From Shigella phage ESh2, in sequence record ON528716: 39,818 bases of DNA. One strand, 5' to 3'. The notes beneath the pieces are model-generated. The model had not been told where the DNA came from. It did no database searches and saw only the letters and a list, made by a program, of their open reading frames with translations. The position numbers were made by a program, and so were the translations under genes. Within the stretch, counting starts at the first letter, position 1. Every line of letters begins with the position of its first letter. This document shows positions 9,432 to 39,815 of the stretch, piece after piece.

Positions 9432-10130
9432 ATGGCTAAGAAGATTTTCACCTCTGCGCTGGGTACTGCTGAACCTTACGCTTACCTCTCCAAGCCGGAC
9501 TACGGTAACGAAGAGCGTGGCTTTGGGAACCCTCGCGGTGTCTACAAAGTTGACCTGACTATTCCCAACAAAGACCCGCGCTGTCAACGCATGGTCGATG
9601 AAATCGTGAAGTGTCACGAAGAGGCTTATGCTGCTGCCGTTGAGGAATACGAAGCGAATCCACCTGCTGTAGCTCGTGGTAAGAAACCGCTGAAACCGTA
9701 TGAAGGCGACATGCCATTCTTCGATAACGGTGACGGCACGACTACCTTTAAGTTCAAATGCTACGCGTCTTTCCAAGACAAGAAGACCAAAGAGACCAAG
9801 CACATCAATCTGGTTGTGGTTGACTCCAAGGGTAAGAAGATGGAAGACGTTCCGATTATCGGTGGTGGCTCTAAGCTGAAAGTCAAATACTCTCTGGTTC
9901 CGTACAAGTGGAACACTGCTGTAGGTGCAAGCGTTAAGCTGCAACTGGAATCCGTGATGCTGGTCGAACTGGCTACCTTTGGTGGCGGTGAAGACGATTG
10001 GGCTGACGAAGTTGAAGAGAACGGCTATGTTGCCTCTGGTTCTGCCAAAGCGAGCAAACCACGCGACGAAGAAAGCTGGGACGAAGACGACGAAGAGTCC
10101 GATGAAGTAGACGAAGACGGAGATTTCTAA
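9432..10130 (+). CDS. 2.5: single-stranded DNA-binding protein with acidic C-terminal tail
   Basis: 232 aa; MAKKIFTSALGTAEPYAYLSKPDYGNEERGF... ends DEDDEESDEVDEDGDF; matches T7 gp2.5. Confidence 0.97.
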   Translation: MAKKIFTSALGTAEPYAYLSKPDYGNEERGFGNPRGVYKVDLTIPNKDPRCQRMVDEIVKCHEEAYAAAVEEYEANPPAVARGKKPLKPYEGDMPFFDNGDGTTTFKFKCYASFQDKKTKETKHINLVVVDSKGKKMEDVPIIGGGSKLKVKYSLVPYKWNTAVGASVKLQLESVMLVELATFGGGEDDWADEVEENGYVASGSAKASKPRDEESWDEDDEESDEVDEDGDF

Positions 10131-10586
10131 GTGGCTGGCGCATACGCTGCGCGTGGTATCAGAAAGGTCGGGACATTCCGTTCCGGCCTAGAAGATAAGG
10201 TCTCTAAGCAGCTAGAGAGTAAAGGTATACAGTTTGACTACGAGCAGTGGAAGATTCCATACGTAGTCCCTGCGAGTAATCATACCTATTGTCCAGATTT
10301 TCTACTGCCCAATGGTATCTTTATCGAGACCAAAGGACTATGGGAAAGTGATGACCGCAAGAAGCACCTACTTATTCGCGAGCAGATGCCTGAGCTAGAT
10401 ATACGACTTGTGTTCTCAAGCTCCCGAACAAAGCTCTACAAAGGGTCTCCAACGTCCTATGCAGAATTTTGTGAAAAGCACGGCATCAAGTTTGCTGATA
10501 AGCTGATTCCAGTTGAGTGGCTCAAAGAGCCTAAACGGGAGGTGCCATTCGATAAGCTCAAACAGTCAAAAGGAGCTAAGAAGTGA
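10131..10586 (+). CDS. 3: endonuclease I (Holliday junction resolvase)
   Basis: 151 aa from GTG at 10131 immediately after the 2.5 stop; MAGAYAARGIRKVGTFRSGLEDKVSKQLESKG...PDFLLPNGIFIETKG matches T7 gp3. Confidence 0.9.
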   Translation: MAGAYAARGIRKVGTFRSGLEDKVSKQLESKGIQFDYEQWKIPYVVPASNHTYCPDFLLPNGIFIETKGLWESDDRKKHLLIREQMPELDIRLVFSSSRTKLYKGSPTSYAEFCEKHGIKFADKLIPVEWLKEPKREVPFDKLKQSKGAKK

Positions 10587-11041
10587 TTCATCCAAAACTC
10601 TTGATAGAGCCGACCGATTCCTGTATTGAATGGACAGGCGCGTTCCACAAGAACGGGTACGGAGTAATCTCTTTGAATCGCAAAGTAGCTGCCGAACTAG
10701 GAATACCTAGGGTGCAATTTGTACACAGGGCAAGCTACATGCAGCATAAAGGAACTATAGGTGATGGACTTGTTGTTCGTCACCTGTGTCACAACAGAAA
10801 GTGTTTCAACCCAGCTCACTTGGAAGTCGGCACTCAGTACGATAACTTCGAAGATAGTGTTAAGGTTGGTCGCAACAAACGTAAACTGCTTGATGAGGAC
10901 GTTAAATCAATTAGAGAGTCCACAATGAGTAACCGCAAGTTAGCCAAGCTATACGGTGTTAGCTCTACAACGATCTTCCACATCAAGCACAACAACAAGT
11001 GGAGGAATTTAAATGGCACGAGTACAATTCAAACAGCGTGA
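10583..11041 (+). CDS. HNH homing endonuclease (free-standing), inserted between genes 3 and 3.5
   Basis: 152 aa from GTG 10583 (SD aggag 7 nt upstream); motifs EWTGAFHKNGYG, HRASY, RHLCHNRKCFNPAHLEVGTQYDN; C-terminal region SNRKLAKLYGVSSTTIFHI resembles a helix-turn-helix. Confidence 0.8.
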   Translation: MIHPKLLIEPTDSCIEWTGAFHKNGYGVISLNRKVAAELGIPRVQFVHRASYMQHKGTIGDGLVVRHLCHNRKCFNPAHLEVGTQYDNFEDSVKVGRNKRKLLDEDVKSIRESTMSNRKLAKLYGVSSTTIFHIKHNNKWRNLNGTSTIQTA

Positions 11042-11468
11042 AAGCACCGATGCAATCTTCGTTCATTGCTCAGCAACAAAACCTAATATGAATTGGGGTG
11101 TACGTGAGATTCGCCAGTCTCATAAAGAGCGTGGGTTCCTAGATGTGGGATACCACTTTATCATCAAGCGCGATGGTACTGTAGAGGAAGGCCGAGATGA
11201 GATGGCTGTAGGCTCTCACGCTAAGGACTACAATCACAACTCAATCGGTGTCTGCCTTGTGGGTGGTATCGACGATAAGGGTAAGTTTGACGCTAACTTT
11301 ACGCCAGCCCAAATGCAATCCCTTCGATCACTGCTTGTCACACTGCTGGCTAAATACGAAGGCGCTGTGCTTCGCGCACATCATGATGTTGCACCTAAGG
11401 CTTGCCCATCGTTCGACCTTAAGCGTTGGTGGGAGAAGAATGAACTTGTAACTTCTGACCGTGGATAA
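11013..11468 (+). CDS. 3.5: lysozyme (N-acetylmuramoyl-L-alanine amidase) / RNAP inhibitor
   Basis: 151 aa; MARVQFKQRESTDAIFVHCSATKPN... matches T7 lysozyme; start and SD lie inside the 3' end of the HNH ORF. Confidence 0.95.
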   Translation: MARVQFKQRESTDAIFVHCSATKPNMNWGVREIRQSHKERGFLDVGYHFIIKRDGTVEEGRDEMAVGSHAKDYNHNSIGVCLVGGIDDKGKFDANFTPAQMQSLRSLLVTLLAKYEGAVLRAHHDVAPKACPSFDLKRWWEKNELVTSDRG

Positions 11469-11469
11469 T

Positions 11470-11492
11470 TAATTGAACTCACTAAAGGGAGA
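11470..11492 (+). promoter_or_regulatory. T7 RNAP promoter phi3.8
   Basis: taattgaactcactaaagggaga. Confidence 0.8.
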
Positions 11493-11512
11493 CCACAACG
11501 GTTTCCCTTTGT
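11487..11512 (+). promoter_or_regulatory. 5' leader hairpin / RNase III site R3.8
   Basis: gggagaccacaacggtttccc hairpin; same sequence recurs at the phi10 leader (22511). Confidence 0.6.
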
Positions 11513-11524
11513 TCGCAATGTTGA

Positions 11525-13285
<1,761 letters not shown>

Positions 13286-14311: not shown

Positions 14312-16426
14312 ATGATCGTTTCTGACATCGAAGCTAACGCCCTCTTAGAGAGCGTCACTAAGTTCCACTGCGGGGTTATCTACGACTACTCCACCGCTGA
14401 GTACGTAAGCTACCGACCGAGTGACTTCGGTGCGTATCTGGATGCGCTGGAAGCCGAGGTTGCACGAGGCGGTCTTATTGTGTTCCACAACGGTCACAAG
14501 TATGACGTTCCTGCATTGACCAAACTGGCAAAGCTACAATTGAACCGAGAGTTCCACCTTCCTCGCGAGAACTGTATTGACACCCTAGTTCTGTCACGCT
14601 TGATTCACTCTAACCTCAAGGACACCGATATGGGTCTCCTGCGCTCAGGTAAGTTGCCGGGGAACCGCTTTGGGTCTCACGCTTTGGAGGCGTGGGGTTA
14701 TCGCTTAGGCGAGATGAAGGGTGAATACAAAGACGACTTTAAGCGTATGCTTGAAGAGCGAGGTGAAGAATACGTTGATGGAATGGAGTGGTGGAACTTC
14801 AACGAAGAGATGATGTCCTATAACGTTCAGGACGTTGTGGTCACTAAAACCCTCCTTGAGAAGCTACTCTCTGACAAACATTACTTCCCTCCTGAGATTG
14901 ACTTTACGGACGTAGGACACACTACGTTCTGGTCAGAATCCATTGAGGCCGTTGACATTGAACATCGCGCTGCATGGCTACTTGCTAAGCAAGAGCGTAA
15001 TGGGTTCCCGTTTGACACGAAAGCAATCGAAGAGTTGTACGTAGAGTTAGCTGCTCGACGCTCTGAGTTGCTACGTAAATTGACCGAAACGTTCGGCTCA
15101 TGGTATCAACCTAAGGGTGGCACTGAGATGTTCTGCCATCCACGGACAGGTAAGCCACTGCCTAAATACCCTCGCATTAAGACACCTAAAGTCGGAGGCA
15201 TCTTTAAGAAGCCTAAGAACAAGGCACAGCGAGAGGGACTAGAGCCGTGCGAACTGGATACCCGTGAGTACGTTGCTGGTGCTCCGTATACTCCGGTAGA
15301 GCACGTAGTGTTTAACCCTTCGTCTCGTGACCACATTCAGAAGAAACTTCAAGAGGCTGGATGGGTCCCGACTAAGTTCACCGATAATGGTGCTCCTGTG
15401 GTGGACGATGAGGTGCTAGAAGGAGTACGTGTAGATGACCCTGAGAAGCAGGCTGCTATCGACCTCATTAAAGAGTACTTGATGATTCAGAAGCGAATCG
15501 GACAGTCTGCTGAGGGAGACAAAGCATGGCTTCGTTATGTTGCTGAGGACGGTAAGATTCATGGTTCTGTTAATCCCAACGGCGCTGTTACTGGTCGTGC
15601 CACCCATGCTTTCCCTAACCTAGCACAGGTACCCGGTGTCCGTTCTCCTTATGGGGAGCAGTGTCGCGCTGCTTTTGGCGCTGAGCATCATTTGGATGGA
15701 CTAACTGGTAAGCCTTGGGTTCAGGCTGGCATCGACGCATCCGGTCTGGAGCTACGCTGCTTGGCCCACTTCATGGCTCGCTTTGATAACGGTGAGTATG
15801 CTCACGAGATTCTTAATGGCGACATCCACACTAAGAACCAGATTGCTGCCGAATTGCCTACCCGCGATAACGCTAAGACGTTCATCTATGGGTTCCTCTA
15901 CGGTGCTGGTGACGAGAAGATTGGACAGATTGTTGGTGCTGGTAAAGAGCGCGGTAAGGAACTCAAGAAGAAATTCCTTGAGAACACCCCAGCTATTGCA
16001 GCACTCCGTGAGTCTATCCAACAGACACTTGTGGAGTCCTCTCAGTGGGTAGCTGGTGAGCAACAAGTCAAGTGGAAACGCCGCTGGATTAAGGGTCTGG
16101 ATGGTCGTAAGGTACACGTCCGTAGTCCTCATGCTGCCTTGAATACCCTACTGCAATCTGCTGGTGCTCTCATCTGCAAACTGTGGATTATCAAGACCGA
16201 AGAGATGCTCGTAGAGAAAGGCTTGAAGCACGGCTGGGATGGGGACTTTGCGTACATGGCATGGGTGCATGACGAAATCCAAGTAGGTTGCCGTACCGAA
16301 GAGATTGCTCAGGCGGTCATTGAGACCGCACAAGAAGCAATGCGCTGGGTTGGAGACCACTGGAACTTCCGGTGTCTTCTTGATACCGAGGGTAAGATTG
16401 GTCCTAACTGGGCCGTATGTCACTGA
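14312..16426 (+). CDS. 5: DNA polymerase (family A, with 3'-5' exonuclease and thioredoxin-binding domain)
   Basis: 704 aa from ATG 14312 (SD aggag); [26 protein letters not shown]... near-identical to T7 gp5. Confidence 0.98.
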
Positions 16427-16445
16427 TTCTATAGGAGAAATTATT

Positions 16446-16745
16446 ATGGCTATGACAAAGAAATTTAAAGTATCCTTTGACGTTACCGCAAAGATGCCGT
16501 CTGACGTTCAGGCAATCTTAGAGAAAGACATACTGCACTTGTGTAAGCAGGTAGGCTCAGGTGCGATTGTCCCAGATGGTAAACAGAAGGAAATGATTGT
16601 CCAGTTCCTGACACACGGTATGGAAGGCGTGATGGCATTCGTAGTGCGTACATCATTCCGTGAGGCCATCAAGGACATGCACGAAGAGTATTCCGATAAG
16701 GACTGCTTCAAGTTATCTCCTGCAACAGTACGGGAGGTGTTCTGA
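16446..16745 (+). CDS. 5.5: gene 5.5 protein (H-NS binding)
   Basis: 99 aa; MAMTKKFKVSFDVTAKMPSDVQAILEKD... matches T7 gp5.5. Confidence 0.9.
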   Translation: MAMTKKFKVSFDVTAKMPSDVQAILEKDILHLCKQVGSGAIVPDGKQKEMIVQFLTHGMEGVMAFVVRTSFREAIKDMHEEYSDKDCFKLSPATVREVF

Positions 16746-16954
16746 TGTCTGACTACCTGAAAGTACTGCAAGCAATCAAAAGTTGCCCTAAGACTTTCCA
16801 GTCCAACTATGTGCGGAACAATGCGAGCCTCGTAGCGGAGGCCGCTTCCCGTGGTCACATCTCATGTCTGACTACGAGTGGACGTAACGGTGGCGCTTGG
16901 GAAATCACTGCTTCCGGTACTCGCTTTCTGAAACGAATGGGAGGGTGTGTCTGA
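16745..16954 (+). CDS. 5.7: gene 5.7 protein
   Basis: 69 aa; MSDYLKVLQAIKSCPKTFQSNYVRNNASLVAEAASRGH... matches T7 gp5.7. Confidence 0.9.
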   Translation: MSDYLKVLQAIKSCPKTFQSNYVRNNASLVAEAASRGHISCLTTSGRNGGAWEITASGTRFLKRMGGCV

Positions 16955-17112
16955 TGGTACGTGACACTGTAACAATTCCGCGTGATGTGTGGAACGATAT
17001 GCAGGGCTACATCGACTCTCTGGAGCGTGAGAACGATAGCCTTAAGAATCAACTGATGGAAGCTGACGAATACGTAGCGGAACTAGAGGAGAAACTTAAT
17101 GGCACTTCTTGA
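16954..17112 (+). CDS. 5.9: RecBCD inhibitor (gp5.9)
   Basis: 52 aa; MVRDTVTIPRDVWNDMQGYIDSLERENDSLKNQLMEADEYVAELEEKLNGTS; matches T7 gp5.9. Confidence 0.85.
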   Translation: MVRDTVTIPRDVWNDMQGYIDSLERENDSLKNQLMEADEYVAELEEKLNGTS

Positions 17113-19128: not shown

Positions 19129-19449
19129 ATGGGTAAGAAAGTCAAGAAGGTAGTTAAGAAAGTAACTAAGCCCGTTGAGAAAGCCGTAAAGAAAGTTACC
19201 AAGGAAGTGACTCGTCCTATTAAACAGGTTGCTGGTGCGCTGGCGGGTGGTGCTGGTGAAGCACAAGTAGTTGAAGTTCCACAACCAACAGCTGCTGCTA
19301 CTCCTGCTGCACAAATTGTTGACGTACCTGAGAAAGAGGTTTCCACTGATGACGAAGCACAGACCGAAAGCGGACGCAAGAAAGCTCGTTCTGAAGGTAA
19401 GAAGTCCTTGAGTGTAGCCCGTAGCTCCGGTGGGGGTATAAATATATGA
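19129..19449 (+). CDS. 7.3: gene 7.3 tail-associated protein (Lys-rich N-terminus)
   Basis: 106 aa; MGKKVKKVVKKVTKPVEKAVKKVTKE... ending SVARSSGGGINI; matches T7 gp7.3 with a 7-aa PTAAATP insertion. Confidence 0.9.
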   Translation: MGKKVKKVVKKVTKPVEKAVKKVTKEVTRPIKQVAGALAGGAGEAQVVEVPQPTAAATPAAQIVDVPEKEVSTDDEAQTESGRKKARSEGKKSLSVARSSGGGINI

Positions 19450-19847
19450 CAGATTGTATCCTTCATACTGGTTGCACGACTAAAGGAGGGTACGGTCTCG
19501 TTGGTTATAAAGGTAAGACACAGCTGGCTCACAGGGTATCATACATCAAATCAAAGGGTGAGATACCGACTGGTATGGTCATAATGCATACCTGTGACAA
19601 CCCTCTGTGTATCAACCCTGAACATCTTGTAGCTGGAACTCAGCGTGATAACCGTATGGACTGTGTAACTAAAGGTAGAGCGAACGTATCCAGAGGTGAA
19701 GAGCATTATTGTGCCAAGCTCACTGAGGCCATTGTGCGTGAGATTCGTGCATCAAATTTAACCAACACTGAGTTGTCAGAAGTGTATGGCATCCATAGGA
19801 GAACCATTAGTGACGCTCGATGTGGTAAGACATGGAGACATATTTAA
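19446..19847 (+). CDS. 7.7: HNH homing endonuclease at the gene 7.7 position
   Basis: 133 aa; TKGGYGLVGYKGKTQLAHRVSY...HTCDNPLCINPEHLVAGTQRDN HNH motif; C-terminal NTELSEVYGIHRRTISD HTH-like; stop overlaps gene 8 start by 1 nt. Confidence 0.85.
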   Translation: MTDCILHTGCTTKGGYGLVGYKGKTQLAHRVSYIKSKGEIPTGMVIMHTCDNPLCINPEHLVAGTQRDNRMDCVTKGRANVSRGEEHYCAKLTEAIVREIRASNLTNTELSEVYGIHRRTISDARCGKTWRHI

Positions 19848-26861: not shown

Positions 26862-26884
26862 TAATACGACTCACTATAGGGAGA
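26862..26884 (+). promoter_or_regulatory. T7 RNAP promoter phi13
   Basis: taatacgactcactatagggaga, exact consensus. Confidence 0.9.
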
Positions 26885-27929: not shown

Positions 27930-30173
27930 ATGAGTAAAATTGAATCTGCCCTTCAAGCGGCACAACCGGGACTCTCTCGGTTACGCAGTGGTGCTGGCGG
28001 TATGGGCTATCGTGCAGCAACCACTCAAGCTGGACAACCAAGGTCAAGCCTATTGGACACCATTGGTCGGTTCGCTCAGGCTGGTGCTGATATGTATACA
28101 GCTAAGGAGCAACGAGCAAGGGACCTAGCTGATGAACGCTCTAACGAGATTATCCGTAAGCTGACACCTGAGCAACGCCGAGAAGCTCTCAACAATGGAA
28201 CCCTTCTGTATCAGGATGACCCATACGCTATGGAAGCACTGCGAGTCAAGACTGGTCGTAACGCTGCATACCTTGTTGACGACGAAGTTATGCAGAAGAT
28301 TAAAGAGGGTGTCTTTCGCACTCGTGAAGAGATGGAACAGTATCGCCATAGTCGTCTTCAAGAGGGCGCTAAGGCATACGCTGAGCAGTTCGGCATCGAC
28401 CCTGATGACGTTGATTATCAGCGTGGTTTCAATGGAGACATCACTGAGCGTAACATCTCCCTGTACGGTGCACATGATAACTTCTTGAGCCAACAAGCTC
28501 AGAAGGGTGCCATCATGAACAGCCGAGTGGAACTCAACGGTGTCCTCCAAGACCCTGACATGCTTCGCCGCCCAGACTCTGCGGACTTCTTTGAGAAGTA
28601 CATCGACAACGGTCTGGTTACTGGGGCAATCCCATCTGATGCTCAAGCCACACAGCTTATAAGCCAAGCGTTCAGTGATGCTTCTAGCCGTGCTGGTGGG
28701 GCTGACTTCCTGATGCGAGTAGGCGATAAGAAGGTAACTCTTAACGGTGCCACTACGACTTACCGAGAGTTGATGGGTGAAGAACAGTGGAATGCTCTCA
28801 TGGTAACAGCACAACGTTCTCAGTTTGAGAATGACGCTAAGCTGAACGAGCAGTACCGCTTGAAGATTAACTCTGCGCTGAACCAAGAGGACCCTCGTAC
28901 TGCGTGGGAGATGCTTCAAGGTATCAAGGCTGAACTCGATAAGGTTCAACCTGATGAGCAGATGACACCACAACGTGAGTGGCTAATCTCGGCACAGGAA
29001 CAAGTTCAGAACCAGATGAACGCATGGACGAAGGCTCAGGCCAAAGCTCTGGATGACTCAATGAAGTCTATGAACAAACTTGAAGTAATCGACAGGCAAT
29101 TCCAGAAGCGAATCAACGGTGAGTGGGTCTCAACGGACTTCAAGGATATGCCTACCAACGAGAACACTGGGGAGTTCAAGCATAGCGATATGGTTAACTA
29201 CGCCAATAAGAAACTCGCTGAGATTGACCGTATGGATATTCCAGATGGTGCTAAGGACGCTATGAAGTTGAAGTACCTTCAAGCTGACTCTAAGGACGGT
29301 GCATTCCGTACAGCAATCGGAACAATGGTGACTGACGCTAGTCAAGAGTGGTCTGCCGCCGTGATTAACGGTAAGTTACCAGAACGAACCCCAGCTATGG
29401 ACGCTCTGCGCAGAATCCGAAATGCTGACCCTCAGTTGATTGCTGCATTATACCCAGACCAAGCTGAGTTATTCCTGACTATGGACATGATGGACAGACA
29501 AGGTATTGACCCTCAGGTTATTCTTGACGCTGACCGACTGACTGCCAAACGTTCCAAAGAGCAACGCTTCGAGGACGATAAAGCATTCGAGTCTGCACTG
29601 AATAGCTCTACGGCTCCTGAGATTGCCCGTATGCCAGCGTCACTTCGTGAATCTGCGCGTAAGATTTATGACTCCGTTAAGTACCGCTCAGGTAACGAAA
29701 GCATGGCTATGGAGCAGATGACCAAGTTCCTTAAGGAATCTACCTACACGTTCACTGGTGACGATGTTGATGGTGATACCGTTGGTGTAATTCCGAAGAA
29801 CATGATGCAAGTCAACTCTGACCCGAAATCGTGGGAGCAAGGCCGTGATATTCTGGAGGAAGCACGTAAGGGAATCATTGCGAGCAACCCTTGGATAACC
29901 AATAAGCAACTGACCATGTATTCACAAGGTGACTCCATTTACCTTATGGACACCACTGGTCAAGTCCGAGTCCGATACGACAAAGAGTTACTCTCGAAGG
30001 TCTGGAGTGAGAACCAGAAGAAACTCGAAGAGAAAGCTCGTGAGAAGGCTCTGGCTGATGTTAACAAGCGAGCACCTATAGTTGCCGCTACGAAGGCCCG
30101 TGAAGCTGCTGCTAAACGCGTCCGAGAGAAACGTAAACAGACTCCTAAGTTCATCTACGGACGTAAGGAGTAA
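27930..30173 (+). CDS. 15: internal virion protein C (ejectosome, gp15)
   Basis: 747 aa; MSKIESALQAAQPGLSRLRSGAGGMGYRAATTQ... matches T7 gp15. Confidence 0.97.
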   Translation: MSKIESALQAAQPGLSRLRSGAGGMGYRAATTQAGQPRSSLLDTIGRFAQAGADMYTAKEQRARDLADERSNEIIRKLTPEQRREALNNGTLLYQDDPYAMEALRVKTGRNAAYLVDDEVMQKIKEGVFRTREEMEQYRHSRLQEGAKAYAEQFGIDPDDVDYQRGFNGDITERNISLYGAHDNFLSQQAQKGAIMNSRVELNGVLQDPDMLRRPDSADFFEKYIDNGLVTGAIPSDAQATQLISQAFSDASSRAGGADFLMRVGDKKVTLNGATTTYRELMGEEQWNALMVTAQRSQFENDAKLNEQYRLKINSALNQEDPRTAWEMLQGIKAELDKVQPDEQMTPQREWLISAQEQVQNQMNAWTKAQAKALDDSMKSMNKLEVIDRQFQKRINGEWVSTDFKDMPTNENTGEFKHSDMVNYANKKLAEIDRMDIPDGAKDAMKLKYLQADSKDGAFRTAIGTMVTDASQEWSAAVINGKLPERTPAMDALRRIRNADPQLIAALYPDQAELFLTMDMMDRQGIDPQVILDADRLTAKRSKEQRFEDDKAFESALNSSTAPEIARMPASLRESARKIYDSVKYRSGNESMAMEQMTKFLKESTYTFTGDDVDGDTVGVIPKNMMQVNSDPKSWEQGRDILEEARKGIIASNPWITNKQLTMYSQGDSIYLMDTTGQVRVRYDKELLSKVWSENQKKLEEKAREKALADVNKRAPIVAATKAREAAAKRVREKRKQTPKFIYGRKE

Positions 30174-30199
30174 CTAAAGGCTACATAAGGAGGCCCTAA

Positions 30200-30616
30200 A
30201 TGAGTATCGTGGAGCGCATTAGGAATGATTCAATTGTTGATGACAATGGTTGTTGGCTCCCTAAGAGACCAATCAAAGGTTATCGTCACATTAGGATTGA
30301 TGGTGTGCTCCAACGTGCTCACAGGGTGATAGTGGGTGCTGGGAAGGATGACGTTGTATTACACCTGTGTGATGTACCCAGTTGTTGTAACCCTGAGCAT
30401 CTCCGAATAGGCACTCAATCAGACAACATGGTTGACATGCAATCTAAGCATAGACATCCGGGACGTAAATTGAGTGACGAGGATGTAATCTACATACTAA
30501 ACTCTGATGCCTCAGGCTATAGTCTAGCCAAGAAATTCAAAGTAACCAAAGAAGTAATCTATAGAATACGAAAAGGAGAGTACTATGGGCGTTTACGACA
30601 AGTCGAAACCAAGTGA
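30200..30616 (+). CDS. HNH homing endonuclease inserted between genes 15 and 16
   Basis: 138 aa; SD taaggagg; DDNGCWLPKRPIKGYRHI...AHRVIV...HLCDVPSCCNPEHLRIGTQSDN HNH motif; C-terminal SGYSLAKKFKVTKEVIYRIRKG HTH-like; 3' end overlaps gene 16 start by 32 nt. Confidence 0.85.
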   Translation: MSIVERIRNDSIVDDNGCWLPKRPIKGYRHIRIDGVLQRAHRVIVGAGKDDVVLHLCDVPSCCNPEHLRIGTQSDNMVDMQSKHRHPGRKLSDEDVIYILNSDASGYSLAKKFKVTKEVIYRIRKGEYYGRLRQVETK

Positions 30617-33600
30617 GTATGATGGCCTCTTCCAGAAAGCGGCAGATGCTAACGGAGTGTCTTATGACCTTTTACGTAAAGTCGCTTGGACAGAATCACG
30701 ATTTGTACCTACAGCAAAATCTAAGACTGGACCATTAGGCATGATGCAATTAACCAAGGCAACCGCTAAGGCCCTTGGCCTGCGAGTTACCGATGGTCCA
30801 GACGACGACCGACTGAACCCTGAGTTAGCCATCAATGCTGCCGCTAAGCACCTTGCAGGTCTGGTGAGTAAATTCGATGGTGACGAACTTAAAGCTGCCC
30901 TTGCGTACAACCAAGGCGAGGGACGCTTGGGTAATCCACAACTTGAGGCGTACTCCAAGGGAGACTTTGCGTCCATCTCTGAGGAAGGACGTAATTACCT
31001 GCGTAACCTTCTGGATGTCGCTAAGTCACCGATGGCTGGACAATTGGAAACCTTTGGAGGTATCACCCCAAAGGGTAAAGGCATTCCGGCTGATATTGGA
31101 TTGGCTGGAATCGGTCATAGTCAGAAAGTAACACAGGAACTTCCTGAGTCCACAAGTTTTGACGTTAAGGGTATCGAACAGGAGGCTCCGGCGAAACCAT
31201 TCGCCAAGGACTTTTGGGAGACCCACGGAGAAACGCTTGATGAATACAACAGCCGTTCAACCTTCTTCGGATTCAAAAATGCTGCCGAAGCTGAACTCTC
31301 CAACTCAGTAGCTGGGATGGCCTTCCGTGCTGGTCGTCTAGATAATGGTTTTGATGTGTTTAAAGACACCATTACGCCGACTCGCTGGAACTCTCACATT
31401 TGGACTCCAGAAGAGCTAGAGAAGATTCGAACCGAGGTTAAGAACCCTGCGTACATCAACGTGGTAACTGGCGGTTCCCCTGAGAATCTTGACGACCTCA
31501 TTAAGCTGGCTAACGAGAACTTTGAGAAGGACTCACGCGCTGCTGAGGCCGGTCTTGGGGCTAAGCTAAGTGCTGGCGTTATCGGTGCTGGTGTGGACCC
31601 TCTCAGCTATGTACCTATGGTTGGGGTTACGGGTAAGGGCTTTAAGTTAATCAATAAGGCTCTTGTAGTTGGTGCCGAAAGTGCAGCACTTAACGTAGCC
31701 TCCGAAGGTCTCCGTACCTCCGTAGCTGGTGGTGACGCTGACTATGCTGGTGCGGCTTTAGGTGGCTTTGTGTTTGGTGCTGGTATGTCAGCAATCAGTG
31801 ACGCTATTGCTGCTGGACTGAAACGTAGTAAACCAGAAGCCGAGTTCGACAATGAATTCATCGGTCCTATGATGCGAATGGAAGCCCGTGAGACAGCACG
31901 CAACGCCAACTCTGCGGACCTCTCTCGGATGAACACTGAGAACATGAAGTTTGAAGGTGAGTATAACGGAGTACCTTATGAGGACTTACCGACCGAGAAA
32001 GGTGCCGTGGTGTTACACGATGGCTCCATTCTAAGTGCAAGTAACCCAATCAACCCTAAGACTCTCAAAGAGTTCTCAGAGGTTGACCCTGAGAAGGCTG
32101 CGCGAGGAATCAAACTGGCTGGGTTCACCGAGATTGGCTTGAAGACCTTGGGGTCTGACGATGCTGACATCCGTAGAGTGGCTATCGACCTCGTTCGCTC
32201 TCCTACTGGTATGCAGTCTGGTGCCTCCGGTAAGTTCGGTGCAACAGCTTCTGACATCCATGAGAGACTTCATGGTACTGACCAGCGTACTTATAATGAC
32301 TTGTATAAAGCAATGTCTGACGCTATGAAAGACCCTGAGTTCTCTACTGGCGGCGCTAAGATGTCCCGTGAAGAAACTCGCTACACTATCTACCGTAGAG
32401 CGGCACTAGCTATTGAGCGTCCAGAACTCCAGAAGGCACTCACTCCGTCTGAGAGAATCGTTATGGACATCATTAAGCGTCACTTTGACACCAAGCGTGA
32501 ACTCATGGAGAATCCCGCAATCTTCGGTAATACGAAGGCTGTGAGTATCTTCCCTGAGAGTCATCATAAGGGAACCTACGTTCCTCATGTATATGACCGA
32601 CACGCTAAGGCGCTGATGATTCAACGCTATGGTGCCGAAGGTTTACAGGAAGGGATTGCTCGTTCGTGGATGAACAGCTACGTCTCCAGACCTGAGGTCA
32701 AGGCGAGAGTCGATGAGATGCTTAAGGAAGTACACGGGGTGAAGGAAGTAACGCCAGAGATGGTAGAGAAGTACGCTATGGATAAGGCTTACGGTATCTC
32801 CCACTCAGACCAGTTCACCAACAGTTCCATAATCGAAGAGAACATTGAGGGCTTAGTAGGTATTGAGAACAACTCATTCCTTGAGGCACGTAACTTGTTT
32901 GATTCGGACCTATCCATCACTATGCCAGACGGACAGCAATTCTCAGTGAACGACCTAAGGGACTTCGATATGTTCCGCATCATGCCAGCGTATGACCGCC
33001 GTATCAACGGTGACATCGCAATCATGGGGTCTACTGGGAAAACCACTAAGGAACTTAAGGATGAGATTTTGGCTCTTAAGGTGAAAGCTGAGGGGGACGG
33101 GAAGAAGACTGGCGAGGTTCATGCTCTTATGGATACCGTTAAGATTCTTACTGGTCGCGCTCGACGTAATAACGACACTGTGTGGGAAACCTCACTGCGT
33201 TCCATCAATGACCTAGGGTTCTTCGCTAAGAACGCCTACATGGGTGCTCAGAACCTTACCGAGATTGCTGGGATGATTGCCACTGGTAACGTTCGTGCTC
33301 TCGGTCACGGTATACCAATTCTGCGTGATACACTCTACAAGTCTAAACCAGTTTCCGCTAAGGAACTCAAGGAACTCCATGCGTCTCTGTTCGGGAAGGA
33401 GGTGGACCAGTTGATTCGCCCTAAACGTGCTGACATTGTACAGCGCCTAAGGGAAGCGACTGATACCGGACCTGCTGTATCGAACATCGTAGGGACCTTG
33501 AAGTATACCACACAGGAACTGGCTGCTCGCTCTCCGTGGACTAAGCTGCTGAACGGAACCACTAACTACCTTCTGGATGCTGCGCGTCAAGGCATGCTTG

Positions 33601-34541
33601 GGGATGTTATTAGTGCCACCCTAACGGGTAAGGCTACCCGCTGGGAGAAAGAAGGATTCCTTCGTGGTGCCTCCGTAACTCCTGAGCAGATGGCTGGCAT
33701 CAAGTCTCTCATCAAGGAACATATGGTACGTGGTGAGGACGGGAAGTTTACCGTCAAGGACAAGCAAGCGTTCTCTATGGACCCACGGGCTATGGACTTA
33801 TGGCGACTGGCTGACAAGGTAGCTGATGAGGCAATTCTGCGTCCGCATAAGGTGTCCTTACAGGATTCCCATGCGTTCGGAGCATTAGGTAAGATGGTAA
33901 TGCAGTTTAAGTCTTTCACTATCAAGTCCCTTAACTCTAAGTTCCTGCGAACCTTCTATGATGGATACAAGAACAACCGAGCGATTGACGCTGCGCTGAG
34001 TATCATCACCTCTATGGGTCTCGCTGGTGGTTTCTATGCTATGGCTGCACACGTCAAAGCATACGCTCTGCCTAAGGAGAAACGTAAGGAGTACTTGGAG
34101 CGTGCACTGGACCCAACCATGATTGCCCACGCTGCGTTATCTCGTAGTTCTCACTTTGGTGCTCCTTTGGCTATGGTTGACCTAGTTGGCGGTGTTTTAG
34201 GGTTCGAGTCCTCCAAGATGGCTCGCTCTACGATTCTACCTAAGGACACCATGAAGGAACGTGACCCAAACAAACCGTACACCTCTATAGAGGTAATGGG
34301 TGCTATGGGTTCAAACATGCTGGAGCAGATGCCTTCTGCTGGCTTTGTGGCTAACGTAGGTGCTACCCTAATGAATGCTTCTGGTGTGGTCAACTCACCT
34401 AACAAAGCAACCGAGCAGGACTTCATGACTGGCTTAATGAACTCTACCAAAGAGTTAGTACCTAACGACCCTCTTACTCAACAGCTTGTGGTTAAGATTT
34501 ATGAGGCCAATGGTGTTAACTTGAAGGAGCGTCGGAAATAA
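30585..34541 (+). CDS. 16: internal virion protein D (ejectosome, gp16) with N-terminal lytic transglycosylase domain
   Basis: 1318 aa; MGVYDKSKPSEYDGLFQKAADANGVSYDLLRKVAWTESRF...; matches T7 gp16. Confidence 0.98.
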   Translation: MGVYDKSKPSEYDGLFQKAADANGVSYDLLRKVAWTESRFVPTAKSKTGPLGMMQLTKATAKALGLRVTDGPDDDRLNPELAINAAAKHLAGLVSKFDGDELKAALAYNQGEGRLGNPQLEAYSKGDFASISEEGRNYLRNLLDVAKSPMAGQLETFGGITPKGKGIPADIGLAGIGHSQKVTQELPESTSFDVKGIEQEAPAKPFAKDFWETHGETLDEYNSRSTFFGFKNAAEAELSNSVAGMAFRAGRLDNGFDVFKDTITPTRWNSHIWTPEELEKIRTEVKNPAYINVVTGGSPENLDDLIKLANENFEKDSRAAEAGLGAKLSAGVIGAGVDPLSYVPMVGVTGKGFKLINKALVVGAESAALNVASEGLRTSVAGGDADYAGAALGGFVFGAGMSAISDAIAAGLKRSKPEAEFDNEFIGPMMRMEARETARNANSADLSRMNTENMKFEGEYNGVPYEDLPTEKGAVVLHDGSILSASNPINPKTLKEFSEVDPEKAARGIKLAGFTEIGLKTLGSDDADIRRVAIDLVRSPTGMQSGASGKFGATASDIHERLHGTDQRTYNDLYKAMSDAMKDPEFSTGGAKMSREETRYTIYRRAALAIERPELQKALTPSERIVMDIIKRHFDTKRELMENPAIFGNTKAVSIFPESHHKGTYVPHVYDRHAKALMIQRYGAEGLQEGIARSWMNSYVSRPEVKARVDEMLKEVHGVKEVTPEMVEKYAMDKAYGISHSDQFTNSSIIEENIEGLVGIENNSFLEARNLFDSDLSITMPDGQQFSVNDLRDFDMFRIMPAYDRRINGDIAIMGSTGKTTKELKDEILALKVKAEGDGKKTGEVHALMDTVKILTGRARRNNDTVWETSLRSINDLGFFAKNAYMGAQNLTEIAGMIATGNVRALGHGIPILRDTLYKSKPVSAKELKELHASLFGKEVDQLIRPKRADIVQRLREATDTGPAVSNIVGTLKYTTQELAARSPWTKLLNGTTNYLLDAARQGMLGDVISATLTGKATRWEKEGFLRGASVTPEQMAGIKSLIKEHMVRGEDGKFTVKDKQAFSMDPRAMDLWRLADKVADEAILRPHKVSLQDSHAFGALGKMVMQFKSFTIKSLNSKFLRTFYDGYKNNRAIDAALSIITSMGLAGGFYAMAAHVKAYALPKEKRKEYLERALDPTMIAHAALSRSSHFGAPLAMVDLVGGVLGFESSKMARSTILPKDTMKERDPNKPYTSIEVMGAMGSNMLEQMPSAGFVANVGATLMNASGVVNSPNKATEQDFMTGLMNSTKELVPNDPLTQQLVVKIYEANGVNLKERRK

Positions 34542-39792: not shown

Positions 39793-39815
39793 TAATACGA
39801 CTCACTATAGGGAGA
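39793..39815 (+). promoter_or_regulatory. T7 RNAP promoter phiOR (right-end promoter; its transcript continues across the window boundary into position 1)
   Basis: taatacgactcactatagggaga; window end ...gggagagga joins window start gggacgaaagg... to recreate the T7 phiOR leader. Confidence 0.9.

Follow-up and report, generated by a model that had tools for sequence, protein, structure and literature searches.

The window (the whole 39,818-nt stretch of Shigella phage ESh2 DNA that was analysed, record ON528716) carries between genes 15 and 16 an ORF that is very probably a free-standing homing endonuclease gene (HEG) of HNH_3 type, belonging to the T7 gp2.8-like family and seated at the start codon of gene 16. 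Profile matches in Pfam and PHROG, together with a low dN/dS, point to a real gene as opposed to a chance ORF. An element of this sort would be an ordinary kind of selfish phage gene. For the 138-aa protein itself we infer nuclease activity and homing.

Genomic setting of the HNH gene

The window amounts to an essentially complete genome of a T7-like phage (Teseptimavirus) and shares about 92–93% identity with T7, AV103, ESh6 and their relatives. Genes 15 and 16 are both full length on either side of the HNH ORF, and gene 15 is about 93–96% identical to gene 15 of the T7 group. An earlier note on this DNA had described an ORF of 138 aa with an HNH motif at 30200..30616, lying between two genes that are adjacent in T7; both statements were borne out, the T7 genes being separated by a 26-nt spacer. 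The same note had reported that the last 32 nt of the ORF overlap the start of gene 16 and contain the gene 16 SD. The overlap is as described (30585-30616), but the SD (AAGGAG, 30573-30578) is located just upstream of it, still within the ORF. Coordinates of all features are collected in Table 1.

Table 1. Features of the 15/16 junction and related features elsewhere in the window
Feature	Position	Strand	Remarks
Second gp2.8-like HNH_3 ORF	10583-11041	+	HNH_3 E = 2e-10, weak HTH_psq match
Third HNH_3 ORF	19446-19847	+	E = 2e-12; after gene 7.3, into gene 8 start
T7-type class III promoter, perfect, phi13 position	26862..26884	+	Nearest upstream of HEG
Gene 15 (internal core / ejectosome protein, 747 aa)	27930..30173	+	Upstream flank, intact despite insertion
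TAAGGAGG, 6-nt spacer and ATG	30186..30202	+	Gene 16 SD/start in T7; HNH gene SD/start here
HNH (His-Me finger) endonuclease ORF	30200..30616	+	ATG start, 138 aa; profile matches, dN/dS
Insertion relative to T7-group genomes, 385 bp	30203..30587	+	Junction alignment with T7
HNH / beta-beta-alpha-metal motif HLCDVPSCCNPEHLRIGTQSDN	30362..30427	+	Residues 55-76
C-terminal three-helix HTH-type domain	30476..30571	+	Residues 93-124
New gene 16 initiation cassette (SD AAGGAG, 6-nt spacer, ATG)	30573..30587	+	Read from sequence
Gene 16 (internal core, lytic transglycosylase domain, 1318 aa)	30585..34541	+	Essential downstream gene, length unchanged
HEG 3' end / gene 16 5' end overlap	30585..30616	+	32 nt
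Diverged tract, gene 16 5' end	30585..30665	+	30-nt bins vs ESh6

Anatomy of the insertion and translation signals

A 2401-nt junction query was covered over 2016 nt, in two pieces and at 83% coverage, in the best 60 of 203 T7-group records, and these records therefore have a clean 385-bp gap at the position of the HNH gene. Because an ATG is found at both ends, the insertion can equally well be placed at 30200-30584. On the left side the alignment of the window with T7 and ESh6 shows no difference from the gene 15 stop across the intergenic TAAGGAGG to the end of the ATG, from which it follows that the HEG uses the T7-type SD and start codon of gene 16. The start of the HNH gene thus has the appearance of start-codon capture, with the former SD and ATG of gene 16 taken over by the newcomer.

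Gene 16 itself has been given a new SD and ATG, encoded in the HEG codons R-K-G-E-Y-Y-G (cgaAAAGGAGAGtactATGgg). Because these C-terminal codons spell out both signals, expression of the downstream gene is kept, in agreement with the claim of the earlier note that it had been preserved. The first 14 codons of gene 16 encode MGVYDKSKPSEYDG in the window vs MDKYDKNVPSDYDG in T7, while the total length of the gene is the same. In most relatives the HEG ends in RLR followed by TAA, with this stop placed inside the gene 16 codons GAT-AAG so that the two genes overlap by 17 nt. The window has GAC in place of GAT, a change that is synonymous in gene 16; because of it the ancestral HEG stop is lost and the ORF continues for a further five codons (15 nt) to a TGA, giving the longer overlap. 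Similar C-terminal extensions are present in the metagenomic relatives P0002, P0004, P0005 and P0007. The GC content of the insert is 42.9%, that of the genome 48.5% and that of genes 15 and 16 about 50%.

No T7-type promoter match was found between the promoter at the phi13 position and that at the phi17 position (34539), nor was any terminator-like site found around the HEG. The phi13-position promoter is the presumed source of the HEG-carrying transcript, and the HEG would be a passenger on the late class III transcript. A sigma-70-like match at 30595-30623 was considered as a promoter of its own and rejected, such matches being no more frequent than in shuffled sequence (1 found, mean 1.3). 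Between 29800 and 31000 no Rfam family gave a match at E <= 1, and the RNA structure around the gene 16 start was nothing unusual (z = 0.28).

Protein family, predicted fold and selection

The protein scored 29.1 bits against Pfam HNH_3 (PF13392; cut-off 24.8, E = 7e-7) and just under the cut-off for zf-His_Me_endon (25.3 vs 27). Three PHROG HNH endonuclease families (59, 6254 and 1872) were matched with E values of 1e-18 to 1e-19. Residues of the catalytic and zinc type, namely H55, C57, D58, C62, C63, N64, H67 and N76, are invariant in nine homologues. An AlphaFold model was built from a nine-sequence alignment (best pLDDT 78.9, the other four models near 55) and starts with beta structure in its N-terminal region, followed by a beta-beta-alpha unit (two strands, 52-55 and 68-71, and a helix, 73-82), a low-confidence linker and a three-helix bundle at residues 93-124. 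This HTH-type bundle is the presumed DNA-recognition module. When the model was searched with Foldseek, the top PDB match was I-HmuI (E = 0.017, probability 0.89, 141 columns) and the next was I-PpoI, both with modest scores. As such, the HNH core and the C-terminal HTH-like segment that had been read from the letters hold up as predictions, in the form of a beta-beta-alpha core and a three-helix bundle. A search of solved structures by sequence returned only chance matches to HIV protease (E ~0.03), which were discarded.

Among homologues dN/dS is about 0.07-0.11 over the whole ORF, as taken from pairs whose synonymous sites are not saturated. Between clades the synonymous sites are saturated, and amino-acid identity is still 45-80%. 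These values indicate that the ORF is under purifying selection (dN/dS ~0.1), which would be equally compatible with a domesticated nuclease.

Distribution of the gene and its relatives

Searches were made in a phage collection from which the window's own genome was absent. The earlier note had proposed a BLAST search of the junction against the T7 group for endonuclease-minus alleles, and had named a conserved gene at this place in most T7-group genomes as the finding that would speak against it. Endonuclease-minus alleles were found, the best 60 of the 203 records all having the 385-bp gap, and the element is carried by none of the 203; no close protein homologue is present in the collection, where nothing is more than 62% identical to the HNH ORF. 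By DNA the same element was not found in any sequenced phage, the only similarity being about 67% identity over 190-240 nt to HNH genes of Klebsiella phages.

The nearest relatives are found in Klebsiella Przondovirus and in one Raoultella phage. They share 44-59% amino-acid identity with the window protein, lie between gp15 and gp16 with a 3' end that overlaps gp16, and are annotated as 'HNH endonuclease', 'endonuclease' or 'hypothetical protein'. With a junction query taken from a phage that carries such a relative, 72 of 869 phage records were occupied, and those inspected among the matches were Klebsiella Przondovirus throughout; the unoccupied records, at 78% coverage, correspond to exact absence. 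In a database of 5.8 billion proteins only eight relatives of at least 50% identity were obtained, and the ones that could be placed (99%, 79% and 70% identical) were all between gp15 and gp16. IMG/VR yielded only three relatives, of Przondovirus type and 56-57% identical. The window's own clade (at least 68% identity) is absent from IMG/VR and turned up in no more than a few contigs from Logan and ENA. All family members of at least 56% identity with readable context are at the 15/16 junction. Paralogues about 39% identical are of the T7 gene 2.8 type and located at the 2.5/3 junction, and IMG/VR has one of about 33% identity before gene 8.

The earlier note had remarked that a homing site in the ejectosome operon was not familiar for T7. 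This stands for the T7-group records, from which the gene is absent, but not for the wider subfamily, where the junction is already occupied in some 72 phage records. The 15/16 site therefore appears to be new for the T7 genus as sampled and not for the subfamily around it. A literature search turned up neither a description nor a test of a HEG at the 15/16 junction, and no experimental characterisation of the Przondovirus gp15/gp16 HNH genes. Papers on Przondovirus and the paper on the T3 relative Sxt1 mention extra HNH genes merely as presence/absence differences. PMC13600099 (Sextaphag phages) was considered as a source on the junction HEG and set aside, as it concerns other phages.

The diverged tract at the 5' end of gene 16

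Phage ESh6, about 96% identical to the window in the junction region, served as the empty-site comparison genome. Over the 60 nt that precede the HEG ATG the two phages do not differ. In the first 90 nt of gene 16 the number of identical positions per 30-nt bin is 19, 24 and 26, and beyond these bins it is about 29. Some 20 substitutions fall within the first 81 nt, and past the first few recoded codons they are mostly synonymous. A comparable tract is seen in Przondovirus, where gene 16 alleles were compared by gapped alignment, the HEG+ alleles having one extra codon. Between HEG+ and HEG- alleles 17-21, 26-29 and 20-25 of 30 positions match in successive bins and about 29 of 30 after that, vs 29-30 of 30 in the same bins for pairs of HEG- alleles.

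Divergence at nt 1-32 of gene 16 could reflect the overlapping HEG frame instead of immunity. That frame does not force the further changes, most of them synonymous, between nt 33 and about nt 81. We consider that the tract may be a form of the homing site that has been co-converted or is immune to cleavage, and we infer that the recognition or cleavage site of empty alleles lies within the first ~80 bp of gene 16, a conserved stretch that encodes the start of the transglycosylase region.

The extra codon of Przondovirus was followed in individual loci (L012/L013 nt 902-920 vs L001 3386-3406). Phages that lack the HEG have a gp16 that begins MSYDK, vs MSGYDK or MSGYNK in the carriers L001 and L002 and MSTYNK in L003. 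Because the extra codon comes from the overlapping R-L-R/Q codons, the HEG rewrites the N-terminus of gp16, an essential virion protein, in these phages.

Movement between phage backbones

Three metagenomic contigs (L006, L007 and L008) contain a HEG that is 97-100% identical in DNA to the copy in the window, and in all three it is accompanied by the window's diverged gene 16 tract. The remainder of these contigs is not equally close to the window. L006 is about 94% identical to it throughout. In L007, gene 15 has about 75-85% identity to the window, and its identity to that of any sequenced phage is about 82%. Gene 15 of L008 is closest to those of Yersinia phage vB_YenP_WX2 and phage EG1; here the comparison was made by BLAST, as identities binned from MAFFT alignments looked artificially low. 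Near-identical copies of the HEG in different backbones imply recent transfer. One site per clade, sporadic occupancy and the presence of the same gene in diverged backbones together make up the comparative signature of a site-specific mobile HEG.

Proposed mechanism and alternative explanations

Free-standing HEGs of phages act on an allele that lacks the HEG, which is cleaved, after which recombinational repair co-converts the flanking markers; such genes cluster beside essential genes (PMC10448857). Applied to the window, this would mean that the HEG, with no promoter of its own, is transcribed late together with genes 13-16 by the phage RNA polymerase and translated from the former strong SD and ATG of gene 16. 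During co-infection with a T7-like phage that lacks the HEG, the protein would bind through its C-terminal HTH, and its single HNH active site would nick or cut the empty allele within about the first 80 bp of gene 16. The recombination and repair machinery of T7 would then repair the damage with the HEG+ genome as template, whereby the recipient would acquire the 385-bp gene along with a short tract downstream of it. The carrier allele would be protected, both by the splitting of the site by the insertion and by the ~20 substitutions that gene 16 carries in its first 81 nt. Monomeric HNH enzymes of the I-HmuI type are nickases. Because I-PfoP3I of a T7-like cyanophage is also a nickase (PMC3428280), a nick that is made into a break at the replication fork would be as likely as a direct double-strand break.

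The reading as a free-standing HEG, already proposed in the earlier note, is supported by the insertion, the spread of the gene, the flank, the selection and the predicted fold. What does not carry over is the note's use of the overlap and SD arrangement as a hallmark of such an element, that arrangement being the norm for HNH genes of the T7 family. An unlikely alternative is that the gene is a domesticated or multi-purpose HNH nuclease kept for the benefit of the phage and not for homing, with possible roles in the cleavage of DNA from competing T7-like phages (marker exclusion), in host DNA degradation or in anti-defence. Roles of this kind have been speculated for T7-like HNH genes (PMC8861465, PMC12295037), and both the strong purifying selection and the intactness of the ORF and its catalytic residues in all relatives would suit them. 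However, the gene is dispensable, as none of the 203 closest T7-group records has it and about 90% of Studiervirinae junctions lack it. Each clade of the family is strictly found at one site, and the same gene occurs in diverged backbones, as expected of a site-specific mobile element. Exclusion of competitors, moreover, would be a by-product of homing and as such is no true alternative to it.

It is more improbable still that the gene is a decaying or inactive remnant whose ORF persists merely because its 3' end bears the SD and start of gene 16. The loss of the ancestral stop, which left the ORF five codons longer, could be taken as decay, and of the ORF the phage strictly needs no more than the ~15 nt that precede the gene 16 ATG. 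Yet the low dN/dS of about 0.1 extends across the entire ORF and not the 3' end alone, amino-acid identity remains at 45-80% in spite of saturated synonymous sites, and the catalytic and zinc-type residues are invariant. No frameshift or internal stop was present in any of the nine loci, and DNA copies that are 97-100% identical in different backbones imply recent transfer. Hardly any weight is given to a packaging factor that works with terminase in the manner of HK97 gp74, or to an intron- or intein-encoded endonuclease. In cos phages a packaging role does belong to HNH proteins near the terminase genes (cited in PMC8861465), but packaging of the T7 type needs no HNH factor and the gene is missing in 203 relatives. 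No Rfam intron model is matched, and the ORF is intergenic, has its own start and stop and is not in frame with a host protein. Position and distribution thus effectively refute this last pair of explanations.

Possible start-codon invasion by the gp2.8-like family

The free-standing HEG of the window may be one case of a more general design. We regard it as evenly balanced whether the gp2.8-like HNH family is adapted to start-codon invasion, in which the SD and start of the target are captured and a portable cassette of SD, spacer and ATG is carried in the C-terminus. This cassette may restart the displaced essential gene and rewrite its first 2-4 codons. The family has a conserved C-terminal peptide, I-R-K-G-E/R-x-Y/H-V/G-R-L-R, and the same peptide and cassette are found before two unrelated genes, gene 3 in T7 and gene 16 in the window and in Przondovirus. 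The sequence AAAGG(A/G)AG and the ATG are kept at synonymous positions in all nine loci examined and in T7 gene 2.8. All copies examined encode the Lys of the cassette by AAA and its Gly by GGA or GGG, although synonymous sites elsewhere are saturated. Alleles with the HEG start M-x-G-Y (MAGY in T7 gp3, MSGY in Przondovirus gp16), while those without it start otherwise (MSYDK in Przondovirus gp16, V-A-G-A-Y in gp3 of the window). If general, the design would explain how one small HEG family spreads from one essential gene to another, at their 5' ends, and causes no polar effects. The slightly new point is the C-terminus of the family as a portable SD and ATG cassette that is common to T7 gene 2.8.

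Other HNH genes, empty sites and record irregularities

Two further HNH_3 ORFs are present in the window (Table 1), and both likewise overlap the genes downstream of them. The second is flanked by gene 3 (endonuclease I) at 10131-10586 and gene 3.5 (amidase) at 11013-11468 and overlaps the start of gene 3.5 by 29 nt. Because genes 3 and 3.5 of T7 abut at 10706 with nothing between them, this ORF looks like another HEG insertion. The third has the position of T7 gene 7.7. Gene 8 is listed with a start at 19832, probably an in-frame ATG further upstream; its T7-like start, MAEKRTG, begins at a TAATG at ~19847.

Homologues of T7 genes 2.8, 3.8 and 5.3 were not found in the window by tblastn (sites 10090-10150, 11468-11540 and 16426-17099). 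Gene 3 of the window starts at a GTG immediately after the gene 2.5 stop (TTCTAAGTGGCTGGC), and this GTG is the one used by gene 2.8 in T7. The window is therefore a natural empty site for T7 gene 2.8. The window and T7 would thus mirror each other in two members of one HEG family, each being empty where the other is occupied.

Two irregularities concern records and not the HEG. A perfect 23-nt T7 promoter consensus is located at 39793-39815, 3 nt from the end of the window, and a copy with one mismatch at 939-961. By the T7 map one would expect terminal repeats here, and the record may have been cut or permuted. The record MT350293.1, named 'Enterococcus phage EFA-2', is a T7-like genome of 39.9 kb that is 95% identical to the window across genes 15-16. 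Probably its host, Enterococcus faecalis, was mislabelled or the phage is a coliphage present as a contaminant.

Significance

A HEG clade tied to the 15/16 junction circulates among Studiervirinae, in Klebsiella Przondovirus, T7-like coliphages and a few uncultured relatives, and the T7 genus gains one further, putative, occupied homing site. T7 is a natural empty-site recipient, with an identical upstream flank and a surrounding region that is about 93% identical. The pair of window and T7 would let homing, the length of co-conversion tracts and nick- versus break-induced recombination be measured in the best-understood phage recombination system, and each phage is a reciprocal control for the other, T7 having gene 2.8 and lacking the 15/16 HEG and the window the opposite. 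For phage engineering, an insert of about 0.4 kb is tolerated immediately upstream of gene 16 given the SD and ATG cassette. HEGs of the window type could bias the inheritance of markers in crosses or cocktails of T7-like phages. The main value is a tractable natural homing pair with T7, and possibly a general design of start-codon capture with an SD/ATG cassette.

Comparison with known systems

The HNH genes between gp15 and gp16 of Przondovirus (for example SH-Kp 152410 HOS61_gp40, vB_Kpl_K48PH164C1 LOCUS47 and RAD13_0030) resemble that of the window in family (44-59% amino-acid identity), in site and in size (133-135 aa). They share the C-terminal IRKGE-x-Y-V-RL(R/Q), the codons of which give the SD and ATG of gene 16, as well as the sporadic distribution and the diverged 5' tract of gene 16. 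However, they belong to another genus and host, the window being a Teseptimavirus about 93% identical to T7, and DNA identity is just ~67% over part of the gene. The overlap with gene 16 is 17 nt in Przondovirus vs 32 nt in the window, where the embedded TAA has been lost.

The closest paralogue in T7 is the product of gene 2.8 (NP_041971, of HNH_3 type and annotated 'endonuclease'), with 46% identity over its full length (E = 1e-35). Gene 2.8 starts directly after the gene 2.5 stop at the GTG that starts gene 3 in the window, and the C-terminus of its product, IRKGRRHGRLRR, is encoded by codons that also provide gene 3 with its SD AAAGGGAGG and its ATG; the two genes overlap by 20 nt. Unlike the HEG of the window it is located at the 2.5/3 junction and presumably has another target. 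We know of no demonstration of homing by T7 gp2.8. T7 gene 3.8 overlaps gene 4A by 26 nt in the same layout. Taken with the other two HNH_3 genes of the window, these cases show that the overlap and SD arrangement is standard for HNH genes of the T7 family.

Among solved structures the His-Me finger homing endonucleases I-HmuI (PDB 1U3E) and I-PpoI (PDB 1A73) are the best matches of the model, with which they share the beta-beta-alpha-metal core. I-HmuI, like the model, combines an HNH core and a C-terminal HTH DNA-binding domain in one extended monomer. The two enzymes are intron-encoded, whereas the HEG of the window is free-standing and intergenic, and at 14-21% sequence identity neither is matched by sequence alone. 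A known free-standing HNH gene of ~400 bp that precedes gene 19 in another T7-like phage is placed at another site and in another genus. HEG+ and HEG- genomes have been seen for that gene, both of them in a single lysate, and its 3' end, like that of the HEG in the window, holds the start codon of the essential gene downstream.
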